A stretch of 64,000 nt of DNA from Acidobacteriota bacterium (GCA_963666055.2 CAXWPH010000013.1:1-64000); one strand, 5' to 3'. Positions 21,535-56,070 are shown, counted from the stretch's first letter. Notes: generated by a model not told the origin, from the letters alone. Numbers and translations are program-made.

Positions 21535-21603
21535 ATCCGGCTCAGTCCAACCCCGGAAGATATTGCGCGATTCTTGACCAACATGTGTGGACGGTAGAGG
21601 CAG

Positions 21604-21663
21604 GTGCTGCCTGCCGAGTTCGCATCTGACCCCGAGCGCCTCGCCCGCTTCGAGCAGGAGGCC
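21604..21663 (+). pseudogene. Orphan kinase fragment ([20 protein letters not shown])
   Basis: Near-identical to the N-terminal region of the kinases starting at 27962 and 51259. Confidence 0.85.
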
Positions 21664-21676
21664 CCGTGCCGCCGGG

Positions 21677-22255
21677 ATCGAGTTCAAAACAGCGCTCGAC
21701 GGTTGTAATAGCCCTGCGTTTCGGTTTCAGTGCGCCTGTGTCACCGGCTCCCCTTGGCTCGCTGGTGGCGTTTCGAAGTCCGCGCCTTCGCGTTGGTCGC
21801 GGAAGCGCAGGTAAAAGGAGCGTCAGAATGTCCGAACGTATCCTCTTAGCCCTGATCGTAGTCGTCGCGATCCTGGGAACCGTCCCGGCCATTGCCGAAG
21901 CGGCCCCGTATGCGGGACTCGCCCTCGTCGTCCTCGGTTTGGTTGCGGGTTTCATAGGCAGCGACAGCGCTGATGTCAACCAACGGACGGCGTTCTACGT
22001 CGTCGCCGTGGCACTCCCCGTGTTTTCCGACAGTCTGGACGCCATCGCTGTCGTCGGTCCCTGGGTCAATTCAGTTCTCGACGGCGTTGCGACCGGCATC
22101 CAGGGCATGGCCGTCGCGTTCGTGCTAATGCAGCTCAAGGTCAGGATCATGCCCGCCGCCTGATGGCGTAGCTCGGCGAACCCATGCCCCTCGGGAGGGC
22201 CTAGATGGCGGCGCATCGGCACCCCGTTGGAGTTGAGCGTCCGGTGCATCTCCAC
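21677..22255 (+). repeat. ~580-bp segment duplicated in inverted orientation at 45228-45806
   Basis: Both copies run from ATCGAGTTCAAAACAGCG to ...ATCTCCAC and contain the same gene. Confidence 0.9.
21828..22163 (+). CDS. Small four-TM membrane protein, copy 1
   Basis: AGGAG RBS; hydrophobic 111 aa; paralog at 45320-45655. Confidence 0.8.
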   Translation: MSERILLALIVVVAILGTVPAIAEAAPYAGLALVVLGLVAGFIGSDSADVNQRTAFYVVAVALPVFSDSLDAIAVVGPWVNSVLDGVATGIQGMAVAFVLMQLKVRIMPAA

Positions 22256-31284: not shown

Positions 31285-31423
31285 GGGGTTCTCCCTATCG
31301 ATGTCAAATCGGATAAGTTATTATGGCACTTGACCTTTTTTGGCACAAGGATTTGAAGCGTCGACTCTAGCCAGACCCGTTCAAGATGTTCCATACGACT
31401 CCATCTACAAAGGACCGGCGCGG

Positions 31424-32953
31424 GTGGGGAGAAGCAACCTGAGCGCCAGCAAACGCTCCATGCCGCACGACCCGCAGGCCGAGGAGGCAATCCTCGGCAG
31501 CATCCTGCTCGAAAACGGCGCGTTCGTCGCCGCCGTTGGTGCGGGTCTGACCGGCGACGACTTCTTCGGCGACGGTAGCCTCTCGATCTGGGAGGCGATG
31601 CTGGCGCTCTACCAGCGCGATGAGCCCATCGACAACATCACGCTACGTGCCGAGCTGGATCGACGGGGTGATCTTGAACGAGTCGGTGGCCAGGCGCGCA
31701 TCTCGTCCCTGATCGATGGCTTGCCGGCAGTAGCGAACGTGGCCGACTACGTCCGCATCGTAAAAAACCATGCGGTGTGCCGGCATCTGGCACGAGTGTG
31801 TTTCGAGACGGGGACGAAGGCGCTCGAAGGCGGGCAAGACCCTGCTGGCCTCGGCGCGCGGCTTCGTGGTCATTTAGACGCCATCGCCGTTGTGGGTGAT
31901 TGGCGGTCAGATCTGGAGATTTGCTCGCTCGCGTCGATCCTCGAAGACCCCGAGGCGCTGTGCGGCCCGAGCGTGGTCGTTCCTCGGCTCGCGTGGGCGG
32001 GTCGCGTGACGCTGCTGGCAGCACGGGAGAAGGAAGGCAAATCCACGTTGGTGTCGGGAGCGGCCTCCGCTGTCACGAATGGCGCGTTCTGGCTCGATGC
32101 CGTGGCACCGAGAGGGAAGGTGATGTGGATCTGCGTGGAGGAGCACAAGAACGACCTGGGCAAACGTCTCGAAGAGTTCGGCGCGGATCCTCAGATCGAC
32201 GTGGTCAGCGTGAAACATGGGGCGCGAGATCCTCTCGCCGCCATCCACTCGGCAGTCGCGGAGCGTCGGCCAGCGCTGGTAATCATCGACACGCTCTCGA
32301 CTTTGGTGGCGCATTGCGCCGACAGCCCTGACCCCGGTAACTCGGCCGCGTGGGTAGCGATCATGTCGGCGCTCACCCGGATCGCCAGGGACACGAACGC
32401 TGCGCTTATCCTGATCCATCACGCTCGAAAGTCCGACGGCAAGTACCGCGATAGCAGCGCCATTGGCGCTGGTGTAGACGCGATCATCGAGATGTCTGTG
32501 AAAAGCGGCGACGGTAACGCTCGGAACCTCCAAGTCAGAGCACGGTGGCGCGTCGACGACTACTCCATACGCCTCGTCGACCATCGGTACGAACTCATTT
32601 CCGGCCCGCTTGAGGCGAGAGTTCTCCAACACGTCTCCCGGCACCCCGGCTGCTCAATGCGTGCGCTGCGGGAAGCTGTGGGTGGACGCACTGCCGCTAT
32701 CGGTGAGGCAGTAGAGCAGTTGATCGACAACGAGGATCTTGAGAACCGAGGCGACAAGAAGTCCATGCGGCTGCATGCCGTAGGTGGTTCCCAGCCCCGG
32801 AACCACCCCCATGAGGAGGTGGTTCCCGATAGTGGTTCCGCCCTGGTTCCACGGGCAAGTCAGCCGGAACCGGGCGTGGTTCCCCCCCGCCAACCCCTAT
32901 GGGTTGGCAGGGGAACCGCCCCGGCCCCTGACTCCGACGTGATTGAACTATGA
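31424..32953 (+). CDS. DnaB N-terminal domain fused to AAA_25/RepA-like helicase and winged helix
   Basis: 'PHDPQAEEAILGSILL', 'AREKEGKST', 'LVIIDT', 'LIHHARK...RDSSAI'. Confidence 0.8.
   Translation: MGRSNLSASKRSMPHDPQAEEAILGSILLENGAFVAAVGAGLTGDDFFGDGSLSIWEAMLALYQRDEPIDNITLRAELDRRGDLERVGGQARISSLIDGLPAVANVADYVRIVKNHAVCRHLARVCFETGTKALEGGQDPAGLGARLRGHLDAIAVVGDWRSDLEICSLASILEDPEALCGPSVVVPRLAWAGRVTLLAAREKEGKSTLVSGAASAVTNGAFWLDAVAPRGKVMWICVEEHKNDLGKRLEEFGADPQIDVVSVKHGARDPLAAIHSAVAERRPALVIIDTLSTLVAHCADSPDPGNSAAWVAIMSALTRIARDTNAALILIHHARKSDGKYRDSSAIGAGVDAIIEMSVKSGDGNARNLQVRARWRVDDYSIRLVDHRYELISGPLEARVLQHVSRHPGCSMRALREAVGGRTAAIGEAVEQLIDNEDLENRGDKKSMRLHAVGGSQPRNHPHEEVVPDSGSALVPRASQPEPGVVPPRQPLWVGRGTAPAPDSDVIEL
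32786..32917. repeat. Cluster of eight GGTTCC/GGAACC hexamers, putative replication origin
   Basis: Copies at 32786, 32799, 32821, 32834, 32845, 32866, 32878 and 32912, plus GCCAACCC/GGGTTGGC hairpin. Confidence 0.65.
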
Positions 32954-33361: not shown

Positions 33362-33595
33362 GTGACCGAGCCGGCAAAGGTCCTCCGTCACCCTAACTCG
33401 CCGGTGGAGCATCTCGTCGACGCGCAGGCGGTCGCCAACTGGCTCGGTGTGGAAGCGAACACGGTCCAGAAGTGGGCCTCGAAGCGGAAGATTCCACATC
33501 GGAAGATCAACGGCGTGGTCCGATACATGATGTCTGAGGTAGTCTCCTGGGCACTTGAGGATTGCGACAGGCCGGTCAGGGGGGCAGGTCGATGA
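33362..33595 (+). CDS. Excisionase/AlpA-like HTH protein
   Basis: 'LVDAQAVANWLGV...TVQKWASKRKIPHRKINGVVRY'. Confidence 0.85.
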   Translation: MTEPAKVLRHPNSPVEHLVDAQAVANWLGVEANTVQKWASKRKIPHRKINGVVRYMMSEVVSWALEDCDRPVRGAGR

Positions 33596-35031
33596 CGATC
33601 GAACGCTGGCGCACAAAGAAGGACGCCAAGCGTTTCCGTGCACGCCTCGTCCATCAAGGTGCCGTGATCCACGGTCGGGTTCGCAACGCGGAATGGCAGG
33701 CGCTAGAGGACGAGGCAGCGCTGAAGAAGGCCCGCGATCAGGGTACGCTCGGCGACGACTACGGACAGAATCGCATTCCCACGTTTGCTGAGGCGGCCAA
33801 GGAGTATCTCGCGCACTGTGCCGCCCGCGTCGAGCAGGGCGACGAGGCGCCAAGGACGTACGATGCCAAGGCGACCCACCTTGAGCTGGTGTTGCTGCCC
33901 CGGTTCGGACCGCAGCGGCTAGATGAGATCACCGTCGACCAGGTCGAGGTTGTAAAGCGGTGGCTGTACCGCAACAAGTCGGGGCCGACGGCGAACCGCT
34001 ATCTCGCGACCCTCTCGGGCCTGTTCAAGTTCTACCGCAGGCGAGTGACCAGCCCGGTCGCCGGCGTCACGCGGTACGAGGAGAACACGGACGCCTGGCA
34101 GGCTCCGTCGCGGCCGACGGTGGAGCACATCATCGGTGTGGCGAGGCAGAGCGGGTCACGGCATCTGGCGCCCATTGTCCTGCTCTGCTTCGAGATCGCA
34201 GCCCGCATCGATGAGATCCGGCCGCTGCGGTGGGAAGCGATTGACTTCGATTGGTGCGATCGCAGCGGAACCCGTCGGGGGATCATCACCTGGGAGCGCA
34301 CCAAGGCCGGGAAGCGGCAGACGGGGCCGCTGAGTTTACGGGCTCGCGAGGAACTGCTTGAGCAGCGGATGCGGGTCGGTAACAGCGACTGGTGCTTCCC
34401 GAGCCCCGTGCAGGATGCACCGATCTCCTACTTCGCGATCAACGAAGCCTGGCACCGGGTTCTCGTGAAGGCCAGGGTGCCGCCCATGCGTATTCACACG
34501 ATCGTGCCCGAGATCCTCGCAGCGTATCCGGCTTTCTCGCCCGACGGCACACGGGTGGCCTTCCAAGGATGGACCTCTGATGCCGGTTATCGTCTGTATT
34601 CGGCGGCAATCGACGGCGCAGGGACCACGATCATACCGACCCCAGAGGGAAGTCCCGGCAACGCGTCGTGGGCACCCGACGGCAATGCTATCTATTATCA
34701 GCTGGACGATTCGCTCAGCCGCCGGAACATCTGGATGGTCGATCTGGAGAGCGGCGAGTCGCATCAAGTCACGAGCGGAAACGTCGACGATGCCCATCCC
34801 GCCGTGACTCGCGATGGCGAGCTGTTGCTTTTCCTCCGCAACCACCAAGAGATCTACGTCATGCCAACGGCCGGCGGTACGGAGCGGCTCGTTCACTCTT
34901 ACAGCGGATACAACCAACTGATTGAGTTGCCTTCATGGTCGCATGATGACACGTCGATTCTTTTCAGCCTTGCCCGACGGACTGGAGACATATTTGCCAT
35001 CGTCGGGGCCGATACACGCGATCCACCCTGA
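33592..35031 (+). pseudogene. Tyrosine integrase truncated at HxxR (~34497), fused in frame to PD40 beta-propeller repeats
   Basis: 'GPQRLDEIT', 'TANRYLATLS', 'ARIDEI..LRW', 'TKAG', 'MRIH', followed by 'PAFSPDG' and 'SWAPDG'. Confidence 0.85.
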
Positions 35032-35667: not shown

Positions 35668-35733
35668 GGCTATGTGACGCTCGTCCTCAACTGGTTCGAC
35701 GAGCTGAAGCGGCTCGTGCCGACGGACCACTAG
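35668..35733 (+). repeat. Orphan kinase-propeller 3' tail ([21 protein letters not shown])
   Basis: Matches tails at 44334, 45145, 45837 and 55930. Confidence 0.9.
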
Positions 35734-39990: not shown

Positions 39991-40622
39991 TCACCGTCCC
40001 GTCGGCACCCGCTGCTTCAGCTCCTCGAACCAGTTGAGCACGACGTGGATCTGCGTGATTGGCTCCGGTTTGGCCCATTGGATCATCACAAAGTCGCCGT
40101 CGGGGGTGATGTCGAAGCTATGCGATCTCAATGGACCATGCGCCGTTGCGAATCGGCCTTGCATCTCGAATAGCCGGCGGGGCTTCCCGGGAGCGAAACC
40201 CGAGTCGTAGTTCACATCAACGACCATCATCGCGCCTCCCCCACTGGTCATGTAGTAGATCGCACGCCCGTCCCTGGACCAGACTGGCCAACCCCCGGAA
40301 TCGGTCGAGATCTGCGTCCTTTCGCCCGGCCCTGGATACGGCTGGACATAGGTGTGCCAGTCGCCTGACTCCAGCGAGTGGTAGACGATCCACTTGCCAT
40401 CCGGTGAGAACATGGCTCCGCTCTCCCAAGCCGTAGAGGCGGACAGATCCAGCGGCCGTCCTCCGTTCTCCAGCGGCAGGAGCCGGATGTTCTCTCCAGT
40501 CTTTGGATGGATCTGTTGGTAGGCGAGGAACTCACCGTCAGTGGAAAGGATTGCGGGTATATGGGGTATTCGGCCTCCAGGAGTTGTCGCGGCGTGCCGC
40601 TGCCATCCGCAGGGCGCATGAG
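39991..40622 (-). pseudogene. Kinase-propeller 3' fragment (last blades plus NWFEELKQRVPTGR*), frameshifted
   Basis: 'FSPDGKWIVY', 'QPYPGPG', 'PVWSRDG' and the conserved tail. Confidence 0.85.
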
Positions 40623-40786
40623 GCGCACGGCTTTCGCCGTTTCTCGTTGACAGGGACCCGTTTGCGGCGGCTCAAGTAGTCGACTCCAGTCGACTGGCGT
40701 CTACTGGAGTGAACCCCCGTCGTGGAGACGTTTTGGAGACGCCTATGTTCAACCCCTCGTGCGTCGCGAGTCGCCGAACTCGCCTG

Positions 40787-42712
40787 CTAGGTCTTCGCCG
40801 ACAAAAGCTCACTCACGGCGCGGTGAGCCTGACCGATGGCGATCTCCGTCATGGCCCGTGCGCCGGTGTCGGAGTTGGCGATGGCGATCCGGCCACGAGG
40901 ATGCCGGGCGGTGACCCACGGGGCACGCTCGGGCGGCACCTCATCGGGCCTCCACGCGATCTGACCCGTCTTCGGATCGAGGCCTTTGGCATAGCCGTGC
41001 GGCCAGCGGTTCACCGTGATGGCCTCGATGTCGCGCGCCGGGTCGAAGCCTCCGGCGGACAGTATCCGGCCGAGCTGGTCCCTGATCTTGCGCTCGAAGG
41101 TCGCGAACGTCGTCGCCAACAGACCATGGCGGGCTGCCTTCCACTGCTCAGCCACGGACCGCCCGCGGGCCTCCGGTACGAGGGGAACGCGCCACATGCG
41201 CACGACGATGGGCTCCTCGGGCGTGCTCGCGTGTCGGTAGTTGCCGATGCTGATGGGTGGCGGCACATTCACGTTCTCGAAATAACTCCCCGGGCAGCGC
41301 ACCCTGCTCACACCGAGCCTGGCGAAGGCGGTCCAGTTGCGGATCAGGACGTTGGTGTAGACAAGGGGCGACTTGAGTGCGTTCGATAGCGCCCGTTTTT
41401 GAGTATCCGGCAGTTCCTCGCAAATCAAAGGGATCACGGCGTTGTAACAGGCGAGCACGCAACGACCGGCGCGAACGCGCCGGGCGTGGCCGTCGCGGAC
41501 GTAGGTGACCTCGACCTCCTTGGCGGTTCGTCGATCGCCACGGTGAGCTACCCGCACCGCTGTGCTCTCCAGACGCACGCGGACAGCCGAGCCCTCCCGA
41601 TCGAGCTTGCCGTAGTCGAACGGAGCGTCGACGACGTCCTCCATCGTGCTGCCGGGAGCGACCTCTGGGATCAGCGACCGGACGATCAGACGCGCGATTG
41701 ACGCGTTGCCATCCGGAAACTGGAAGAAAGCACGCTCCTCGGCGGTATCATCGGCACCATCATCGTCCTCGCCGAGCCCCAGCCCGGTGGTCCCAGGCCA
41801 GCTGCCGGCGCCGAGCCAGGTGGGGACGCCATCGAGGCCGATAGTCCAACCGCCGGAGGTCTCGAGGAAGGAGATTGCCTCGCGACCTACCTTGGCCACC
41901 TTCAAGAGAAAGTCTTCGTAGCTCGTGTTGCGAAGAAACTCGACCTTTTCCTCCAAGCTGAGGTGCGCCAGGTAATCGATGTTCGGCTCGTGGAGTCTTA
42001 CAAGGTCATCGCGTGCCGTTTCGGACAGGGGCGCGCGCGCCAGGAACTCGCGCCAAGAGGGCTCGCCTTCGCCTACTAGCAGCCGATCGGTGCCGAACGT
42101 TTCGCGGTCGAAGAAAACCGATCCGCGCATACCGAGCGAGCTGTACAGATCGCTATCGACGAATTCGGAGTAACGGCTTACGTCGATGCCAATCCCGCGG
42201 ATCAGGCGCTGGGCTCCTTCACCGTACTCGTTCAGGTTGGAGATAAAGATCGTGCCGCCATGTGACAGGAACATCCGACCGTCGAGCCGGAACTCGTTGC
42301 GCTTGGCATGACCGCCGAAGTCGTCGTGATTATCGAGAATCAAGATGCGGGCGCCGGGAACAGCTTCTTGGTAGAACCACGCCGCCGCGAGGCCGCTGAG
42401 GCCACCGCCAACCACGACCAGATCATAGAGCTCACCCGTCTCCTCCGCGTTGTCCCAGCGCATGCCTTCGACAAGCTGGTGGGCAACCTCGTAGGAGCCG
42501 TCGTGGCTGCCGCGCATACCAGTGCGGATGGGTGGATACGTGTCGGCGAGGGCCTGTGAGACCCCTCCCGGAGCCTCAGGGCTCGCCAAGGCGTTCGTCT
42601 GCGCCCATGGGAACGTGAGGCTGCCGCTCAGCGCAACGCTGACACCGGCGACGAAGTCGCGACGGGTAATCTCCCGGTGCATCCCGAGATCACGATCATC
42701 ACTGCTGGACAC
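40787..42712 (-). CDS. Tat-exported FAD oxidoreductase, spermidine dehydrogenase (SpdH)-like
   Basis: 'ITRRDF', 'GMRGSHDGS', 'LDNHDDFGGHAKRNEF', 'FPDGNAS', 'NRWPHGYA'. Confidence 0.85.
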   Translation of the reverse strand: MSSSDDRDLGMHREITRRDFVAGVSVALSGSLTFPWAQTNALASPEAPGGVSQALADTYPPIRTGMRGSHDGSYEVAHQLVEGMRWDNAEETGELYDLVVVGGGLSGLAAAWFYQEAVPGARILILDNHDDFGGHAKRNEFRLDGRMFLSHGGTIFISNLNEYGEGAQRLIRGIGIDVSRYSEFVDSDLYSSLGMRGSVFFDRETFGTDRLLVGEGEPSWREFLARAPLSETARDDLVRLHEPNIDYLAHLSLEEKVEFLRNTSYEDFLLKVAKVGREAISFLETSGGWTIGLDGVPTWLGAGSWPGTTGLGLGEDDDGADDTAEERAFFQFPDGNASIARLIVRSLIPEVAPGSTMEDVVDAPFDYGKLDREGSAVRVRLESTAVRVAHRGDRRTAKEVEVTYVRDGHARRVRAGRCVLACYNAVIPLICEELPDTQKRALSNALKSPLVYTNVLIRNWTAFARLGVSRVRCPGSYFENVNVPPPISIGNYRHASTPEEPIVVRMWRVPLVPEARGRSVAEQWKAARHGLLATTFATFERKIRDQLGRILSAGGFDPARDIEAITVNRWPHGYAKGLDPKTGQIAWRPDEVPPERAPWVTARHPRGRIAIANSDTGARAMTEIAIGQAHRAVSELLSAKT

Positions 42713-43012
42713 AGGTCCTCCGGATTCTTTGACGCCGTAGCTGCGCGGAACGTCGGTTCTCGAGTCCCTACCGATTCCTCTCGTGTCCAAGCTCTACCGT
42801 TCCGGAGCCTACTGCCCAGCTGGGCTGAGCGCCACGGCACGTCGGAGGGAAATCCGCCGACTGTGTCACGTGTCCGGTGCACCTCGCCCATCCCGCCGGG
42901 TCCGACAACCTCTTGTCAGCATCGACTCTATGAGTTACGAAGTGGCCCAAACACTCGGCGCAGGGCAAGGTCAAACTTCATTGCCAGTCCTGCCCCACAC
43001 GTGGAGGAAGCC

Positions 43013-44044
43013 ATGAGACGTACCGCTCCTCTGATCCTGACCCTCGCCCTGTTTGGCTGCGGTTCACCCGCTCCCGAGCCTGCGGGTGAGGATCCGGTGA
43101 CTGCACCTGACGCTGAGGTCGAGATCACGGAATGGCTGGTTCCGTGGGAGGGCACGACTCCTCGAGATCCGTACGTGGGCCCGCAGAACCATGTTTGGTT
43201 CGTTGGGCAGGGAGGAGACTACATCGCATCTTTCGACCCAACGACTGGCGAGTTCACCCGCTTCGACCTGGATCCTGGAACCGGCCCGCACAACCTGATC
43301 GTGGATGATGACGGCAGCGTCTGGTACGCGGGAAATGCAGCCGCCCATATCGGCAAGCTAAATCCGGAGAGCGGAGAGATCACCAAGCTCCCCATGCCAG
43401 ATCCGGCAGCGGGGGATCCGCACACGCTCGTGTTCGACCAGAATGGCGACATATGGTTTACGGTGCAGGCGGGGAACTTCGTCGGCAAGCTGTCGCCTCG
43501 GTCTGGCGAGATTCAGTTGATCTCTGTGCCGACAGAAGGTGCGCGTCCGTACGGCATTGTCATCGACTCCAACAACCGGCCGTGGATCGTCGAATTCGGC
43601 GTCAACAAGATTGCGACTGTTGATCCCGACACGATGGCACTTGAGGAGATAACGCTGCCCCGCCCGGAGACCCGGCCTCGCCGACTCGCAGTAACCTCAG
43701 ACGACAAGATCTGGTACGTCGACTACGGTCAAGGATTCCTTGGTCGGCTCGATGGTGTCACCCACGAAATCGAAGAATGGCCAGTGCCTGCCGGGAGCGG
43801 CGCCCTGGCGTATGGCATGGCGGTAGATGATCGCGACCGCCTTTGGTTCGTGGAGAGCGGTCCGCAGCCAAATCGATTGGTTGGATTCGACCCGGCTACG
43901 TCGGAGTTCTTCAGCATCACCGAGATTGAAAGCGGTGGTGGGACGGTGCGTCACATGTACTTCGATGAACGAAGTCGAGAGATCTGGTTTGGGACCGACA
44001 CCAACTACATCGGCAGAGCCCGGCTTAAGGCACTGTCAACTTAA
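43013..44044 (+). CDS. Virginiamycin B lyase (Vgb)-like beta-propeller lipoprotein
   Basis: Lipobox LFGC; repeats 'GPHNL', 'DPHTL', 'RPYGI', 'RPRRL'. Confidence 0.8.
   Translation: MRRTAPLILTLALFGCGSPAPEPAGEDPVTAPDAEVEITEWLVPWEGTTPRDPYVGPQNHVWFVGQGGDYIASFDPTTGEFTRFDLDPGTGPHNLIVDDDGSVWYAGNAAAHIGKLNPESGEITKLPMPDPAAGDPHTLVFDQNGDIWFTVQAGNFVGKLSPRSGEIQLISVPTEGARPYGIVIDSNNRPWIVEFGVNKIATVDPDTMALEEITLPRPETRPRRLAVTSDDKIWYVDYGQGFLGRLDGVTHEIEEWPVPAGSGALAYGMAVDDRDRLWFVESGPQPNRLVGFDPATSEFFSITEIESGGGTVRHMYFDERSREIWFGTDTNYIGRARLKALST
44029..44044. mobile_element. Solitary IS6-type terminal inverted repeat
   Basis: GGCACTGTCAACTTAA resembles the GGCATTGTCAAGTTAA end at 20822. Confidence 0.55.
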
Positions 44045-44333
44045 CCGCCCGAGCCTGTGGAGCTCTCACCGACGAGCGACACGTATCCCCGAGGCCCGGG
44101 ACTGGGTCTCCCTGGTACACGAACAGCTCGATCCGGCCCGGTACCGCCCCCGGGATCTCGTGTACGAGGGAGAAGCTCGGGGACAACTGGAGGCCGGGGG
44201 CCTAGGCGGATAGCCGCTCCCGGAGTTGCCGGATCATCGTCATCGTCGTCACAGCGTCACTGCCCTAGACGCGTCCGGGTACCCCGGGTCCCGTGCAGCG
44301 GCGGTCGCGCGCTCGGGAATCAGGCTGGGGCCG

Positions 44334-44393
44334 CTACGGGTCCGTCGGCACGAGCCGCTTTAGCTCGTCGAACCAGTTGGTGATCAGCGTCAG
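44334..44393 (-). repeat. Orphan kinase 3' tail ([18 protein letters not shown])
   Basis: Near-identical to 45145-45202 and the tail at 55930. Confidence 0.9.
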
Positions 44394-44559
44394 GGGCAGA
44401 AGGGCCCATTCGCTGTACGTGACGGAGCAGACTCTCGACTGCCGGTTGTACCTGATGCTGCGCCCCTTCCTCGTGTCGATCCCCGGTTTGGCCTACGATC
44501 AGCGGCATCCCACGGTGACAGACACGGGCCCCGCTGCCCATTGTGTGAGGAGTGCCGCG

Positions 44560-45060
44560 ATGAAACTCATGGGGCGAATTGTATTGACGCTGGTGGTGCT
44601 GCTCGTTGGGCCCATGTCAGCGGTCAGTGATGAGGCGTCCATCCAGGTGGCCGACTCGGTCGAAGCGGTTCGGCAGATGTTCGTGGGCAATTACGAGCTC
44701 GTAGAATACGAGTCGTTTCCGTCGCCTGGCGAGGTCGTTGCGCGGCACTATGTCGCTCGGATCATGTACGACGCCTACGGCAACATGGCGGCAATCGGCA
44801 TGCCGAAAGACCTGCCAGAGCTCGACCGAGCGTCGGACGACGAACGGGCACGACGTGGCTTTGCCTATTTCGGCAAGTTCCAGATCAACATCGAGGAAGG
44901 CACCGTCACCCACCACTTGATCGGCTCGCCAGTAGCGGCGCGATCGGTGGGCGAGGGCTGGGTGCGGTATTACGAGTTCGACGGCGACCTGCTGACGCTG
45001 TCCATCAAGAACGCTGAGGGTCGCATCACCGGCCAGCTAACATGGAAGAAGTTTGGATAG
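44560..45060 (+). CDS. Secreted lipocalin-like domain protein
   Basis: 'FVGNYELV', 'IMYDAYGNM', 'FAYFGKF', 'LTWKK'; signal peptide. Confidence 0.75.
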   Translation: MKLMGRIVLTLVVLLVGPMSAVSDEASIQVADSVEAVRQMFVGNYELVEYESFPSPGEVVARHYVARIMYDAYGNMAAIGMPKDLPELDRASDDERARRGFAYFGKFQINIEEGTVTHHLIGSPVAARSVGEGWVRYYEFDGDLLTLSIKNAEGRITGQLTWKKFG

Positions 45061-45144
45061 GGCGGAGCCTAGGTGATCGTTCCTGGCGCTACGGACGAGC
45101 GGAATCGAAGGTCGCTAGGCGGCTCGCGAGACTCGGCTACGACC

Positions 45145-45202
45145 CTACGGGTCCGTCGGCACGAGCCGCTTCAGCTCGTCGAACCAGTTGGTGATCAGAA
45201 CC
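45145..45202 (-). repeat. Orphan kinase 3' tail ([18 protein letters not shown])
   Basis: Direct repeat of the tails at 44334 and 45837. Confidence 0.9.
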
Positions 45203-45319
45203 ACATCGGTCTTCAGTCGAGACAGGTGTGGAGATACACCGGCCCCTCAACTCCAACGGGGTGCCGACGCGCCGCCACCTCGCCCCTCCTGAGGGACACG
45301 GGTTCGCCGAGCTACGCCA

Positions 45320-45655
45320 TCAGGCGGCGGGCATGATCCTGGCCTTGAGCTGCATCAGCACCAACGCGACAGCCATCCCCTGGACGCCGGTCGCAACGCC
45401 GTCGAGAACTGAATTGACCCACGGACCGACAACAGCGATGGCGTCCAGACTGTCGGAAAAGACCGGGAGTGTCACCGCAACGACGTAGATCACCGTCCGT
45501 TGGTTGACATCAGCGTTGTCGCTGCCCATGAAACCCGCAACCAAACCGAGGACGACGAGGGCGAGTCCGGCGTACGGGACCGCTTCGGCAATGGCCGGGA
45601 CGGTTCCCAGGATCGCGACGACTACGATTAGGGCGATGAGGACACGTTCGGGCAT
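45320..45655 (-). CDS. Small four-TM membrane protein, copy 2
   Basis: Close paralog of 21828-22163. Confidence 0.8.
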   Translation of the reverse strand: MPERVLIALIVVVAILGTVPAIAEAVPYAGLALVVLGLVAGFMGSDNADVNQRTVIYVVAVTLPVFSDSLDAIAVVGPWVNSVLDGVATGVQGMAVALVLMQLKARIMPAA

Positions 45656-45836
45656 TCTGACGCTCCTTTCAGCTGCGCTTCCGCGACCAACGCGAAGACG
45701 CGGACTTCGAAACGCCACCAGCGAGCCAAGGGGAGCCGGCGACACAGGCGCACTGAAGCCGAAACGCAGCGCTTTTACAACCGTCGAGCGCTGTTTTGAA
45801 CTCGATGCCGCGTGGTGGATCGCGAGGCTGACGGCG

Positions 45837-48560
45837 CTACCGGTCCGTCGGCACGAGCCGCTTCAGCTCCTCGAACCAGTTGGTGACCAGCGTCACATGG
45901 CCGCTGCCGGTCTGGCTCTGGCCGGCGTCGGGGAACATCACGAATTGCTGACCGTCGCCCGTCACGTCGTAGTCGGCATAACAACATCCACTGTTGATAG
46001 TCATTCCGTCTGGCCCGCCAAGAAAACTCCCCTCGAAAAGCTGCTCGGCTCTGCTGTAGGTGAAGGAATCACCTTCCGTCTCTACAGCAACCACCATGAT
46101 CCCTGTATCGGTGCGGTAGAACAGCTCCCGACCGTCGGCTGACCATCTGGGCTGGCCGCCACCGCTGCTGGAGAGCTGCCACTTGCCCGGTCCAGGAGGA
46201 TAGGGCCGGACATAGACTTCATTGCTTCCCGACTCGTAGGAGTCGTAAGCGATCCAGCGACCGTCCGGTGAGAAAGCCGACCACGCGTCGGTAGCATCGG
46301 TATTCACAAAGACCTCCGGCTCCCGATCCTCCTCAAGCGGCAACACCAAAATGTCCCAGCCGGTCGTCTGTGGGTGATTCTCGCCGTATACGAGAAACCT
46401 GCCATCCGCAGACCACGAATACAGCCACTGTCCCCTGTCGCTCTCTGTCAGCCGCTCCACAGTTCCCGATCCGTCGGCACGAGTCCGATAGATGTTCGTC
46501 GCTCCGTCGCGGTTCGACATGAATGCGAGAAACTGCCCGTCCGGTGACCAAACAGGTTCGTCGTCGTTCGCTTCATCAAACGTCAGCCTTGTCGGCACAC
46601 CCCGCTGGATGTCATAGATCCATACGTCAGCGTTTTCGTTGACCAAGGCGCGCACGGCTAGCCGTGTGCCGCCCGGCGACAACCGAGGAGAACTGTAGGA
46701 GCCAGGCTCATCCCACAGCGGTGTCGCGTTGCCCTGCCGGTCTACCCATGCGACGGGATATGCCTCCTGAAGAACGGCCTCGCTCAGATACGCCAGCATT
46801 CCTGTACTTGAGAAGCTGAACTGTGCGACAACCCCCCCCCAACCAAAGGTGGCAAGCCCCTGCACGATGGGTACCGGCTAGCCCTTCACCTCCAGCTCTC
46901 CCAGATCAAACGCGACAGCAAACAGGGTTCCCTGGTTGTGATAGACGAGATGCCCCGTAGGTACGTAACGTCCTTGTCCGCCTTGCTGCACGACCCGTCG
47001 TTGTCTCGTCTCTAGATCCAGCACTTCGATGGCAGACGAATACGCTCCTGGCTCCCCGGCCAAGGAGGAGAACAGCACCGACTTGCCGTCAGGCAGCACC
47101 TGCGGGTCGTTGTGCCAGAGTTCCCCTTGATCGAGTTGAGTCAATGGTTCCGGTTCTCCCCCGCTGGCGGACACGCGGGAGAGGCCGGAGAAGGAGCCGA
47201 TGATGATCGTGTCGTCCGCCCCCCAGCTTCCCGTCAGGGTGCCAGAACCGAAGGAACTGATAGTCAGGGGGGTGCCGCCTATGACGGGGACTATCTTCAG
47301 TTCCGCGCCGCTGAAAAAACCTATCCACTGGCCGTCCGGTGAGAAGAATGGTGCCAATACAGAGCCAGAGACCAAGCGAACGCCCGCTAGCTGATCGAGC
47401 GAGCGAACGTATAGCTCCCTTCGGTCTACTCCGATACCCACGATGTAGACGATCTGTGTGCCATCCGGCGATAGGACAACTCCCTCAGAAGCCAAGCTAA
47501 GATCATCATCGGCCAGCCTCACCTCCAGGTGCATGGGGGACGCAGGTGGCTGATGATTGTGATCTGTCAGGGTCCACGTCAAAAAGGTTGCCGCTGCGGC
47601 GATGGCGACGCCGAGACCGGCTGCCACAGGCATGGGGACGTAACGCCACCAAGACGGCTTTGCAGCCTCACCCGAGCCAACCGTCAGACCGAGGCCACCA
47701 TCTAGGTCGTTGATGACGTAGACGATGCCGATTCGCGCATCAGCGATGTCGTGAAGACGGTCACGCGGTTCCTTCGTAAGACACCGGTCGAGAAGTCGTC
47801 GTAATGCTCTCGGGGTAGCCGCCGGGAGCACTGCCCAGTCCGGCTCCGCCCTGAGAATCGCCGCCATGGTGTCGCTGACTGTCTTACCGTCGAAGGCGCG
47901 CTTGCCCACCAGCATCTCGTACAGCACGCAGCCGAACGACCAGATATCGCTACGCTTATCGACGGGCTCCCCCCGTGCCTGCTCCGGGCTCATGTAGGGA
48001 GCCGTGCCCATGATCACGCCGGTGCCTGTGGCGGCCATCATCGTGGGCGACTGGCTAAGGCCGGACGACGGCTCACTGCCTGCCGCTTCGTAGGCTTTGG
48101 CCAGCCCGAAGTCGAGCACCTTGACGGTGCCATCGGGTGCAACCTGGACGTTGGCGGGCTTCAAATCACGATGGATGACACCAGCCTCGTGAGCGGCTTC
48201 CAGTGCCAGGGCGATCCGTCGGGCGATCTCCAGTGCCTCATCTACGCCGATGCGGCCACTGGACTTGATGCGATCCGCGAGGTTGTCGCCCTCCACCAAC
48301 TCCATGGCGATGAACCGAACACCGTCCGATTCCTCGAAGCCGAAGATCGTGGCGATGTTGGGGTGGTTCAGTGAGGCGAGCAGCTTGGCTTCGCGCTCGA
48401 ACCGGGCTAGTCGGTTGGCGTCGCTAGCAAAGTCCTCCGGCAGCACCTTGATGGCGACATCACGATCCAGCGTCGTATCGCGTGCTCGATACACCTGCCC
48501 CATGCCGCCTTCACCGAGCGGGGCGAGGATCTCGTAGTGCCCGAGCGTCTTGCCGATCAT
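45837..48560 (-). pseudogene. Ser/Thr kinase-TM-beta-propeller, type B copy 2, one in-frame TAG at 46878-46880
   Basis: ORFs 46878-48560 and 45837-46865 share a frame (EVKG*PVPIVQG); ends [14 protein letters not shown]. Confidence 0.88.
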
Positions 48561-51259
48561 CAGGAGCCGCCCGTGGGCACTAGCCGGTTCAATTCCTCAA
48601 ACCAGTTGAGCACAACGTTGAGTCGTGTGCTGGGTGCCGCGCCCCCGGTCTCATCACTACCAGCGGGCACCGTCACGAGGAACCTCTGGCCATCGGCGGT
48701 GACATCGAAGTTGGACAGGGCCTGCATGACGATGTCCGAGACTTCGACAGGGTCGGATGCGGAAAACGACTCCAAATCCACTTCCGCAACGAGGATGCCT
48801 GGGCTGTTCCAGGATTCGTAGTAAATCTCCCTTCCATCCCGCGACCAGCGAGGCCACCAACCACCACGGGTACTCGTAGAGACCGGAAATGTCCGACCGC
48901 TCGATACCTCCCGCACGTACACCTCGAATTGCCCGGTCTCGTCGGAATGAAAGGCGAAGAAGCGACCGTCCGGCGAGAAACTGGCCCAAAACTCACTGGC
49001 GGCGGTATCGACGTGTATTTCCGTATCACCTGTATCGAGAGCCAGTATCCCCAGGTCGATCTGATTTTCGGGCCCGCTGCCAAACAGCAGCATCTCACCG
49101 TCGTCCGAGATCGATATCGGGTACACGTCAGCCTCTGTATCCAACACCAGCTCGGCGTCGAGACTCCGGTCAGCCCGGCGCTTGAAGATGTCGTTGTTGC
49201 CGCCCCGATCCGACCTGAAGAAGACCCACTGTCCATCGGGCGACCAAACGGGCACTTCGTTGTTGCCCTCCGTGTTCAGCAGCACCTGGCTGCCCCCTCG
49301 TTCGATCTCGTAGATCCAGATGTCCCAGTCCCCATCATTTCCCTGGATTTGGAGCGCGATGCGCTGGTCATCCGGCGAGAGGCCCAAGTACTGAGACCGA
49401 CGGGGCTCGAAGGGCAGCGGCTCGACTTGGCCGTCACGATCCACCCAGACGAGTAGGGAACTGCCCGAAGCGCCGCCATTCCTCATGTGATAGACGAGCA
49501 TCCCGGTCTCGGAGAAGTCGAACGAGACCCCGCCTTCAACGTCGGCGGCGAGGTTCTCGACCACGGGTATCGGCGAGCCGGTCGTCTCCAGGGTATCGAG
49601 GTCGAAGGGCACCGCGAACAACGCTCCGGCGTTTGAATACACCAGATGGCCCGTTGGCACGTATCGGCCGTAGGTGCCGCCCTGGTGCACGACCTGGCGC
49701 TCGCCGGTCTCGAGATCTACGACCTCGAGGTTGGCCCTGTCGAAACCTCCGGTCTCGGTCGAAGTGAATAGCACTGCCTTTCCGCCGGGTAAGAACTGGG
49801 GCCAGCGGTGGCTGCGCTCGCCCTCTGAAAGCTCGGTGAGCAGTCCCGGCTCACCTTCGACAGCCGACACGAGAAACAGGCCGCTGTTGACGTTGGGTGT
49901 GAAGACGATCGTATCGTCGGGCCCCCAATCCGCACCTCGGCTCCTGTCCACCGGCGCGATCGACTGCGGGGTGCCTCCAGTTACGGACGCCTTTTTCAGC
50001 TCCGAAATGGTGACGAACCCTACCCACTGCCCGTCGGGCGAGAAGAAGGGATGGTACGGCGCACCCAGGATGGTTGCCGAGGACGCGAGTGTCGTCGAGT
50101 CCTGCTGGTCGAGAGCGCGAAGGTACAGCGTGCTTCCACCGTCCGGGTCACCCTCGACGTAGGCAACGCGCCGTCCATCGGGCGATAGCACGACTGCGGA
50201 GCCGGGCCCACTCAGGATCGTGTCGACGAGGGGGTCGAGCTGCAGGCGGATGGTGTTTCCGGGCTCCGGTTGCATTGCCCACCAGGTGGCAAGAACCGCC
50301 AGAAGGGCGCTGGCCACAGCTATCGGGACGCCCAGCTTCCACGAGATGCCGCGTGTCGTTTCCACGGCGACAGGGGGTGTCGGAAGCGCCGCTCCTGACT
50401 CCACGTCTGTACCGAGCGCCTGTATGTCGACGACCAGATCGCCGGCTGTCTGGTAACGCTTGGCCGGCTCCTTCGCGAGTGCCTTGCGGACGATCCTCTG
50501 CAACTCTATCGGCAACGACCGGTCGATCTCCCCAATCGCTGGCGGCTCATCGGACAGGATGTGCGCCAAGGTCTCGTGGACGTTCTTCCCGCCGAATGCC
50601 TGCCTGCCCGTGACCATCTCATAGAGCAAACAGCCGAAGGCGAACAGGTCGGCTCGATGGTCGATCTTGTCGGAGCCTTCCACCTGCTCTGGGGCCATGT
50701 AGCCGGCGGTGCCCATCACCTGACCGGCCACCGTGCCCATCATCGTGGGTGATTGAGTTGCACCGCCCGGTGAGCCTGCCGCCACCTCGGTCAGCTTCGC
50801 CAGGCCGAAGTCCAGCACCTTGGCGTGGCCCTCCTTGGTGACGAAGATGTTCTCCGGCTTCAGATCCCGGTGGATGATGCCGGCGGCGTGAGCAGCAGCC
50901 AGCGCCTCGGCGATCTCGGTGGCTAATCCGAGCGCCTTCTTGAGCGGCAGCGCACCCTTGCCCAGCGGCTCCCGAAGTGTGTCTCCCTCCAGGTACTCCT
51001 GCACCATGAAGTGGGTGTCGCCTTCGGTGCCGATATCGTGAACGACCGCGATGTGCGGGTGGTTCAGCGCGGCGGCAGCGCGGGCCTCCTGCTCGAAGCG
51101 GGCCAGGCGCTCGGGGTCAGAGGCGAACTCGGCGGGCAGCACCTTGATGGCTACCTTGCGACCCAGGCGGGTGTCCTGGGCCAGGTACACCTCTCCCATG
51201 CCGCCCGCACCGAGCTGCTCGGTGATCTCGTAGGGGCCTAGTTTGGTGCCGGGTTCCAT
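48560..51259 (-). CDS. Hanks-type Ser/Thr kinase-TM-PD40 beta-propeller, type A copy 2
   Basis: All catalytic motifs, TM and SPDG repeats present; ends [15 protein letters not shown]. Confidence 0.93.
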
Positions 51260-51430
51260 GGCGCTTCCGATGCGGGGTAGGGGAGTGCCTGAAGCCTATC
51301 TCTGGGGCAGTCGAGGGTCCACGGGGCAGGCAGGATGGCACCTGCTCTCAGACGACCTCCATGCCCACGCCAGGGGGCGGGGGTATCAGGAATCCCGCCG
51401 GTCGGTAACCCGCTCAGAGACGACCCTGAG

Positions 51431-53362: not shown

Positions 53363-53515
53363 CTATCCCGCCGGTCTGGTCGGTGCTAGAACGTCGCGGA
53401 TCGACCCGGCGAGGTTGATGCCGACGACCTCGGCCAATTCCGCCTCTGAGGCCCGGCGCACCCCGGCAAGGGACCCGAACCTACGAAGCAAAGCGCGTTG
53501 GCGCTTCGGTCCGAG
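53363..53515 (-). pseudogene. uvrC: UvrC C-terminal helix-hairpin-helix fragment
   Basis: [32 protein letters not shown]..., read in a frame not in the ORF track. Confidence 0.75.
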
Positions 53516-53760
53516 TCGAACCAGTTGATGACCAGCGTCACCGTGCCACTGCTGATCTGGCGTTGGTTAGTGTCAGGGAACATCACGAAACGCTGACCGT
53601 CGGCAGCAACGTCGGCGTCAGAGGCAAACTCGGCAGGCAGCACCTTGATGGCGACATCACGATCCAGCGTCGTATCGCGTGCTCGGTACACCTGCCCCAT
53701 GCCGCCTTCACCGAGCGGGGCGAGGATCTCGTAGTGGCCTAGTTTGGTGCCGGGTTCCAT
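53516..53760 (-). pseudogene. 'Empty' kinase gene: first ~48 codons joined in frame to the last ~33 codons
   Basis: MEPGTKLG...VLPAEFASD|[15 protein letters not shown]...VTLVINWFD. Confidence 0.9.
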
Positions 53761-55929: not shown

Positions 55930-56070
55930 CTACGGGTCCGTCGGCACGAGCCGCTTCAGCTCGTCGAACCAGTTGGTGACCAGCGTCACCATGCCCGTCT
56001 GGGTGTCCTGGCCGGGGTCGGGGAACATCACGAACCGCTGACCGTCACCCGTCACGTCGTAGTCTGACGC
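55930..56070 (-). repeat. Orphan kinase 3' tail, long form ([18 protein letters not shown]...[14 protein letters not shown])
   Basis: Closely matches the 3' end of the type B gene at 45837. Confidence 0.9.

Follow-up and report, generated by a model that had tools for sequence, protein, structure and literature searches.

A 64,000-nucleotide stretch of an Acidobacteriota bacterium genome (GCA_963666055.2, CAXWPH010000013.1:1-64000; the whole stretch is called the window here) contains three short direct repeats of a Ser/Thr kinase gene end that separate single genes. In this study, we favor with moderate confidence the interpretation that the repeats are leftover 3′ ends of a Ser/Thr kinase-beta-propeller family of ~90 copies and act as short homology anchors for RecA-type exchange of the flanking genes. 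Partner switching at kinase ends likely proceeds by ordinary homologous recombination and not by a dedicated integrase. The stubs keep the exact end of the gene with a variable length of upstream sequence, and in close relatives a tail has one flank in common and the other not.

The three repeats run from AAC to TAG on the minus strand (45881-45837, 45189-45145 and 44378-44334) and differ pairwise at 1-3 of 45 positions. Each comprises the last 14 codons and the stop of a kinase-transmembrane-propeller (Pkinase-TM-PD40) gene, encoding the peptide NWF(D/E)ELKRLVPTD(P/R). A first reading made from the sequence alone had described this layout, and both the three kinase-tail repeats separating single genes and the repeat core it quoted, which matches exactly, were found as it described them. 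The orphan tails that it put at ~58-60 bp consist of the 45-bp repeat plus 14-20 nt of kinase-like sequence upstream. Tail 1 (45837..45881) ends a full-length B-type kinase gene (45837..48560, minus strand). Tail 2 has ~20 nt of upstream kinase sequence from a different paralog type (DMVLIT-like; 45145..45209), and tail 3 has 14 nt of VTLIT type (44334..44392) immediately abutting the lipocalin unit. A membrane-protein unit (45228..45810; gene 45320-45655, 111 aa) in the orientation of the tails lies between tails 1 and 2 and has a 92.6% identical copy at 21673-22255. The lipocalin unit between tails 2 and 3 (44393..45144, or 44393-45189 with tail 2) carries a Lipocalin_5 gene (44560-45060, E 4e-9) on the opposite, plus strand. 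The spacer following the stop of tail 2 (45118..45144, minus strand) is loosely conserved, at ~45-70% per position across 59 copies.

The repeat extends genome-wide, which the sequence-only reading had not noted. In the source genome (G000, 95.7% complete; C-numbers denote its contigs) a 42-nt core was found at 90 places with up to 12 substitutions and at none in a triplet-shuffled copy of the genome, so the repeat is not a product of chance. One chance-like match (C12:271917) was dropped, giving 89 copies, as were five exact duplicates, of which four lie in an inverted duplication on C8 and the fifth on C15; this left 84 distinct copies. A few additional 5′-truncated or indel copies exist outside this set. 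The tails group in 27 clusters. Upstream kinase homology, with two chain artifacts corrected by hand, spans <50 nt in 21 tails, 50-150 nt in 20, 150-600 nt in 10, 600-2400 nt in eight and the full length in 25, and orphan stubs make up 51 of the 84. The other end of the gene behaves similarly: of 92 matches to kinase 5′ ends, 87 were left after removal of two unrelated kinases and three duplicates, and 36 of 56 truncated 5′ ends keep <300 nt. Among 97 kinase-domain fragments, 89 begin at the gene start and eight are internal. A toy simulation with random log-uniform deletions needs ~8 events to produce such short stubs and then leaves ~0.9 internal pieces per gene, far more than observed; this outcome depends on the assumed deletion-size distribution, and small internal propeller fragments are hard to detect.

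The tail DNA is conserved far beyond the needs of the protein, and a refuting condition set by the sequence-only reading, conservation no greater than protein constraint predicts, did not hold. Codons for identical residues agree in 232 of 244 cases (95%) in the tail, and in 135 of 141 at four- and sixfold degenerate residues, compared with 26-46% in propeller bins, 48-71% in kinase-domain bins and 82.5% in the best of 321 other windows. These values come from seven long PTDP-ending genes (one frameshifted) with 44% protein identity, and the pairs are not independent. In a profile of copies selected for TAG, conservation rises sharply at AAC, extends two bases beyond the stop and then falls to ~45-70% over 25 bases. 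Orphans are 95.8% identical to the consensus (n=39) versus 93.4% for the tails of long genes (n=14), and their differences are biased to third positions (40:14:14), as if orphan tails had been drawn from coding alleles.

The exact DNA pattern of the tail was found in three of four same-genus genomes and in none of 36 others, and a protein profile detected tails in 26 of 41 genomes. Records matching the tail pattern are from Acidobacteriota, including one from Vicinamibacteria. Short stubs (<600 nt) also occur in three other lineages, at 7/23, 5/24 and 6/21 scored loci when the best 30 loci per genome were considered. The leucine codon after NWFxE is CTG in 40 of 45 tails in the source genome, TTG in 18 of 22 in G012 and CTC in 10 of 11 in G039. 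Identity at four- and sixfold degenerate positions is 0.90 within the source genome, 0.78 within G039 and 0.65 within G012, and 0.44-0.58 between genomes. These lineage-specific codons mark concerted evolution of the tail, which is not a single fixed protein-bound site.

The behavior of the flanks was followed in 155 tails from the source genome and fetched parts of G002-G004. Among PTDP-type tail pairs at least 90% identical on one side, 22 of 23 differ on the other side; the 23 pairs collapse to 14 independent groups, 13 with switching and one with read-through. Among the 35 tails examined in G002, a close shared block was available for 14, and all but one of these were block ends (13 of 14). 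Switch positions lie between -6 and +75 of the tail start, the median tail-containing gap measuring 678 bp. Variant linkage places the crossover at different points: sharing continues beyond base 70 in one pair, reaches ~42-47 in others and is lost by base 12 in others again. The new downstream partner usually comes with a post-tail spacer of its own and, in other contexts too, has a tail beside it. The islands are gene-by-gene mosaics.

The lipocalin unit illustrates this pattern. C8, G002 and G003 each have a copy of 93-96% identity behind a tail, and in all four copies the unit starts at the tail with an unrelated upstream each time (four different upstreams in three species). Its far end is variable, and a tail follows only in the source genome, not in G002 or G003. 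The second copy of the membrane unit (21600..22255, plus strand) is in a mirror-image layout, with a kinase-domain fragment before it and a truncated kinase 5′ end (22443) after it. The second refuting condition of the sequence-only reading, a lack of presence/absence variation in the intervening genes, did not hold either: relatives differ in whether and where they carry these genes. Its proposal of serial insertion at an att-like site is supported in one part, as flanks do switch at the tail, and finds no support in the other, the site-specific att-type mechanism discussed below.

Several observations weigh against homology-anchored exchange at the tails. Read-through cases exist (C15:1042696/G002 and, at 90%, C15:1406145/G002). 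Tail-free 100-bp intergenic windows end shared blocks in 48/85 and 74/207 cases (36-56%), and whole tail-free gaps do so in 49/62 and 76/117 (65-79%), compared with 15/16 tail gaps; Fisher tests of the tail gaps against these four sets give p = 0.015, 3e-5, 0.28 and 0.021, respectively, with cases that are not independent. Only 12 of 224 block ends fall at tails and 16 at heads (~12% together). The closeness of the joints to the tail, with 41 of 59 truncated copies keeping <150 nt, is left without explanation, and the tails of G007 are barely homogenized (0.45). A stretch of 45-75 bp offers little homology for efficient exchange by RecA. No empty/filled pair was present among the fetched stretches of G002-G004, and no circle junction was seen in public runs, which consist of contigs that break at the repeat; the joints listed from these runs have either paralog letters separating their two sides or sides that are short, and none was counted as an empty site. 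Block ends at tails and heads are five- to six-fold above random. Tail-free intergenic positions served as the null for block ends, since one drawn from any island position (9.7%) was judged too lenient. After this control, what remains tail-specific is the position of the switch and the partner's own post-tail spacer.

The main competing possibility is that the stubs are passive debris: tandem kinase arrays decayed by large deletions in mosaic islands with occasional gene conversion, the tail being no meaningful route for cargo. We hold this to be unlikely, though a serious competitor. It is consistent with the frequent breaks in tail-free gaps and with the ~197 of 224 block ends away from kinase ends, with the state of the full-length copies (14 of 26 intact, 12 broken) and with the random orientation of the cargo, which is 20 same to 16 convergent downstream of orphans and 16 to 19 upstream (own gene caller). 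Stub trimming was also observed directly: the locus G002 C9:2075451 is that of G000 C2:373670 minus ~1 kb of stub. A circular permutation considered at the G002 locus was rejected, as the two loci are orthologous, the G002 one having a trimmed stub and a second copy of the upstream gene. Debris does not readily account for the narrow range of switch positions (-6 to +75 relative to the tail start) when the median gap is much longer, for partners that bring their own post-tail spacer and have tails elsewhere, or for orphans that are as near to the consensus as the tails of long genes.

Under homology-anchored exchange, the conserved terminal peptide would have seeded the 45-bp homology. Exchange among the ~90 copies and across species could then have homogenized the tail, which may now serve as the crossover point. 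Orphans could arise by displacement as in Rhs/T6SS arrays, one side of the incoming DNA being anchored at a kinase end and the other joined illegitimately within a different kinase; alternatively, a putative circle carrying stub, tail and gene may integrate by a single crossover. The useless kinase body would be trimmed afterwards, as in the single trimming seen. Both recA and comEC are present in all five genomes tested. Local target duplication was rejected as a source of orphans: the nearest upstream tail was the best match in 0/22. Tail 2 differs from tail 1 in paralog type, and tail 3 is of the tail-1 type with its exact match elsewhere.

Integrative elements that use gene 3′ ends (tRNA/tmRNA, guaA and prfC types) leave a duplicated 3′ end flanking foreign DNA, and a duplicated gene 3′ end beside other DNA is also seen here. 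That the tail is an att site at which an island tyrosine recombinase inserts serially, as the sequence-only reading proposed, is improbable. A sharply bounded conserved block from AAC to two bases beyond the stop, the presence of an identical sequence in three further species of the genus, the genome's 29 PF00589 matches and several joints within 20 nt of AAC would all suit such a site. However, the crossover is not fixed, being placed from before base 12 through the region near 40 to beyond 70, and the tail codons are lineage-specific. Sequence upstream of orphans is variable paralog kinase sequence of 0 to >1000 nt with no constant element arm, the nearest upstream tail is not the best match of orphans, the lipocalin unit lacks a following tail in two relatives, and kinase 5′ ends form equivalent stubs. 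Nine tyrosine-recombinase matches lie no more than 5.5 kb from a tail, and for six of them a tRNA or tRNA-end copy is located at most 3 kb away; outside the window, the two closest that look intact flank tRNA-Sec. The genome's own integrases sit mostly at tRNA/tmRNA sites; no recombinase linked to the tails was found in the source genome, serine recombinases and IS110 not having been searched. Unlike 3′-end integrative elements, the units are ~0.7-1 kb long and show no fixed crossover, element-borne arm or unit-borne integrase.

Integron cassette arrays consist of single-gene units between short repeats, with attC ends RYYYAAC..GTTRRRY and a stable single-strand hairpin. Single-gene units separated by a short repeat are a shared feature, a bulged hairpin is possible (ACGAGC/GCTCGT) and an IntI-like C-terminal remnant is present on C10 (50422-50736, L261:924-1240; 105 positions). 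The reading of the tails as attC-like sites is nevertheless largely refuted and has very little probability left. Folding is not above that of shuffled sequences (z-scores -1.8 to +0.9 for five sequences), and the hairpin is lost in G012 and G039 tails. On the only strand ending in GTT, one end reads TAC and not AAC. No TIGR02249 match in the source genome exceeded the cut-off and no intact IntI was found; the remnant contains a TAG and lies 32 kb from the nearest tail; the two-gene pair that it adjoins is presumably PemK/MazF-like plus ribbon-helix-helix-like. Integrons also differ in gene orientation, which is random here, and in the origin of the repeat, which here is protein-coding. Further candidates fared no better. 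With no PF00078 match in the source genome, a reverse transcriptase expected of retro-elements (DGR, group II intron) was not found. Repeats of the REP/RAYT kind depend on a Y1 (HUH) transposase and a GTAG-led hairpin; the source genome has no PF01797 match and the spacer after GTAG is only 45-70% conserved. No Rfam match at E<=1 occurred in window 43000-47000, and a degenerate tail pattern had 0 exact matches in viral_contigs, against carriage by phage.

The nearest parallels are displacement arrays of toxin loci. In Rhs C-terminal displacement arrays (Jackson et al. 2009, PMC2935791), an intact gene is followed downstream by strings of fragments that vary in length, the conserved part is proposed as an anchor for homologous recombination with circular intermediates and no dedicated recombinase, and the conserved core precedes a variable in-frame toxin tip so that exchange alters the protein. 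The kinase fragments of variable length arrayed downstream of a full gene, and exchange at a conserved part between loci and strains, are alike. In contrast, the conserved block here is the very end (and start) of the kinase gene, the tail closes with a stop codon, no more than 45-75 bp serve as the anchor, and the passengers are unrelated whole enzyme and transport genes in either orientation, not an in-frame toxin tip with its immunity gene. Type VI secretion system (T6SS) orphan immunity arrays are described by Kirchberger et al. (2017, PMC5361080) as products of events with one homologous anchor and one illegitimate joint: the end of the old gene is displaced, the gene formerly downstream of it moves back, and repetition builds the array, with no evidence of an integrase. 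One anchored and one illegitimate joint, with no integrase evidence, are likewise proposed here; unlike the arrays in that source, the kinase tails have no effector-immunity logic, the cargo is metabolic or transport-related, and there are ~27 dispersed clusters as opposed to three loci. The kinase-tail system appears to operate in the manner of Rhs/T6SS displacement but is not a member of it, because its passengers are separate genes and not in-frame tips. No description of such kinase stubs was found in the open-access listings and abstracts searched.

The cargo itself is diverse. Genes adjoining tails mainly encode hydrolases, oxidoreductases and transport proteins (19 of 27 with a Pfam family), with examples such as amidases, amidohydrolases, a PQQ dehydrogenase, a TonB receptor, a sulfatase and aminotransferases. 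If homology-anchored exchange is correct, a protein-coding motif partly explains integrase-free reshuffling of accessory enzymes in the flexible islands of uncultured Acidobacteriota. It would also carry the Rhs/T6SS displacement model beyond toxin tips to complete, unrelated genes, and offer a natural case of concerted evolution limited to 45 bp of a gene. A stronger form, in which the kinase-family ends are a self-maintaining integrase-free cassette exchange in Acidobacteriota, with tail and head as a universal docking sequence that spreads neighbors between loci and species and so keeps the stubs alive, is speculative and in our view doubtful. For annotation, caution is due with att-like or attC-like repeats in such genomes, as they can turn out to be kinase stubs. 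A promoter or terminator role of the tail was dropped because the neighboring genes have no orientation bias.

It is highly improbable that the arrangement is an artifact of assembling a repeat-rich metagenome. A perfect inverted duplication on C8 (28.6-41 kb / 55.4-67 kb, near-perfect at 99.8-100% and possibly itself an assembly artifact) and frameshifts in nine long kinases, which could be read errors, might suggest one. However, short-read contigs with no differing letters span the joints, those at 45810 and 45210-45228 in one run and that at 44393 in another, though these runs may include the source sample, and the tail-lipocalin unit and orphan tails recur in G002, G003 and G004. The in-frame TAG at 46878-46880 of the B-type kinase, another feature beyond the sequence-only reading, has the same letters in short-read contigs. 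Amber read-through of broken kinases was rejected: TAG alone accounts for 3/12 broken genes, and the CUA-anticodon tRNA has a mispaired anticodon stem. This ARAGORN call (C5:65608-65685) is probably a tRNA remnant.

The window contains additional tails and 5′ stubs that the sequence-only reading had not listed. Upstream of the B-type kinase is an intact 899-aa paralog of A type (48560..51259, minus strand), the stop of which overlaps the next ATG. A tail of the NWFEELKQRVPTGR type, the common one in G012 and G007, lies at 39991..40035 (minus strand) with ~600 nt of propeller upstream. Orphan tails are present at 55930..55974 (minus strand, ~160 nt of propeller upstream) and 35689..35733 (plus strand, ~30 nt upstream). 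At 53386..53760 (minus strand), a kinase 5′ stub of ~50 codons continues in frame into a 3′ stub with its stop after NWFD, almost the whole gene being deleted. Downstream of tail 3, a Vgb-lyase-like propeller gene (43013..44044, plus strand) has a 95% copy in another context in G002. The 111-aa membrane protein has no Pfam or NCBIfam family, and the ESM Atlas gave only unnamed hypothetical clusters.

Other features of the kinase ends were seen elsewhere. An inverted repeat GGCGCTC...GAGCGCC stands directly before the kinase start codon in many copies (window 51260-51290 and most 5′ ends). Kinase 5′ stubs are fused in frame to unrelated cargo genes at C10:10821, C3:2117 and C15:1302153, where the stub provides the translation start, and two partial tails lie head-to-head as a near-perfect palindrome at C2:361836-361874. 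Within the window, an open frame at 33592-35031 encodes a tyrosine recombinase without its C-terminal catalytic part fused to a PD40 propeller fragment; it adjoins a DnaB/AAA_25 helicase gene (31340-32953) and was read as the remnant of an integrative element. A gene for an FAD-dependent oxidoreductase (40787-42682) belongs to another expanded family of ~20-30 copies that is likewise cargo in the islands. Other short dispersed repeats border cargo units at 42863-42968, 40622-40741 and 44029-44172, and the repeat at 42900-42970 has many copies in G001, G003 and G004.

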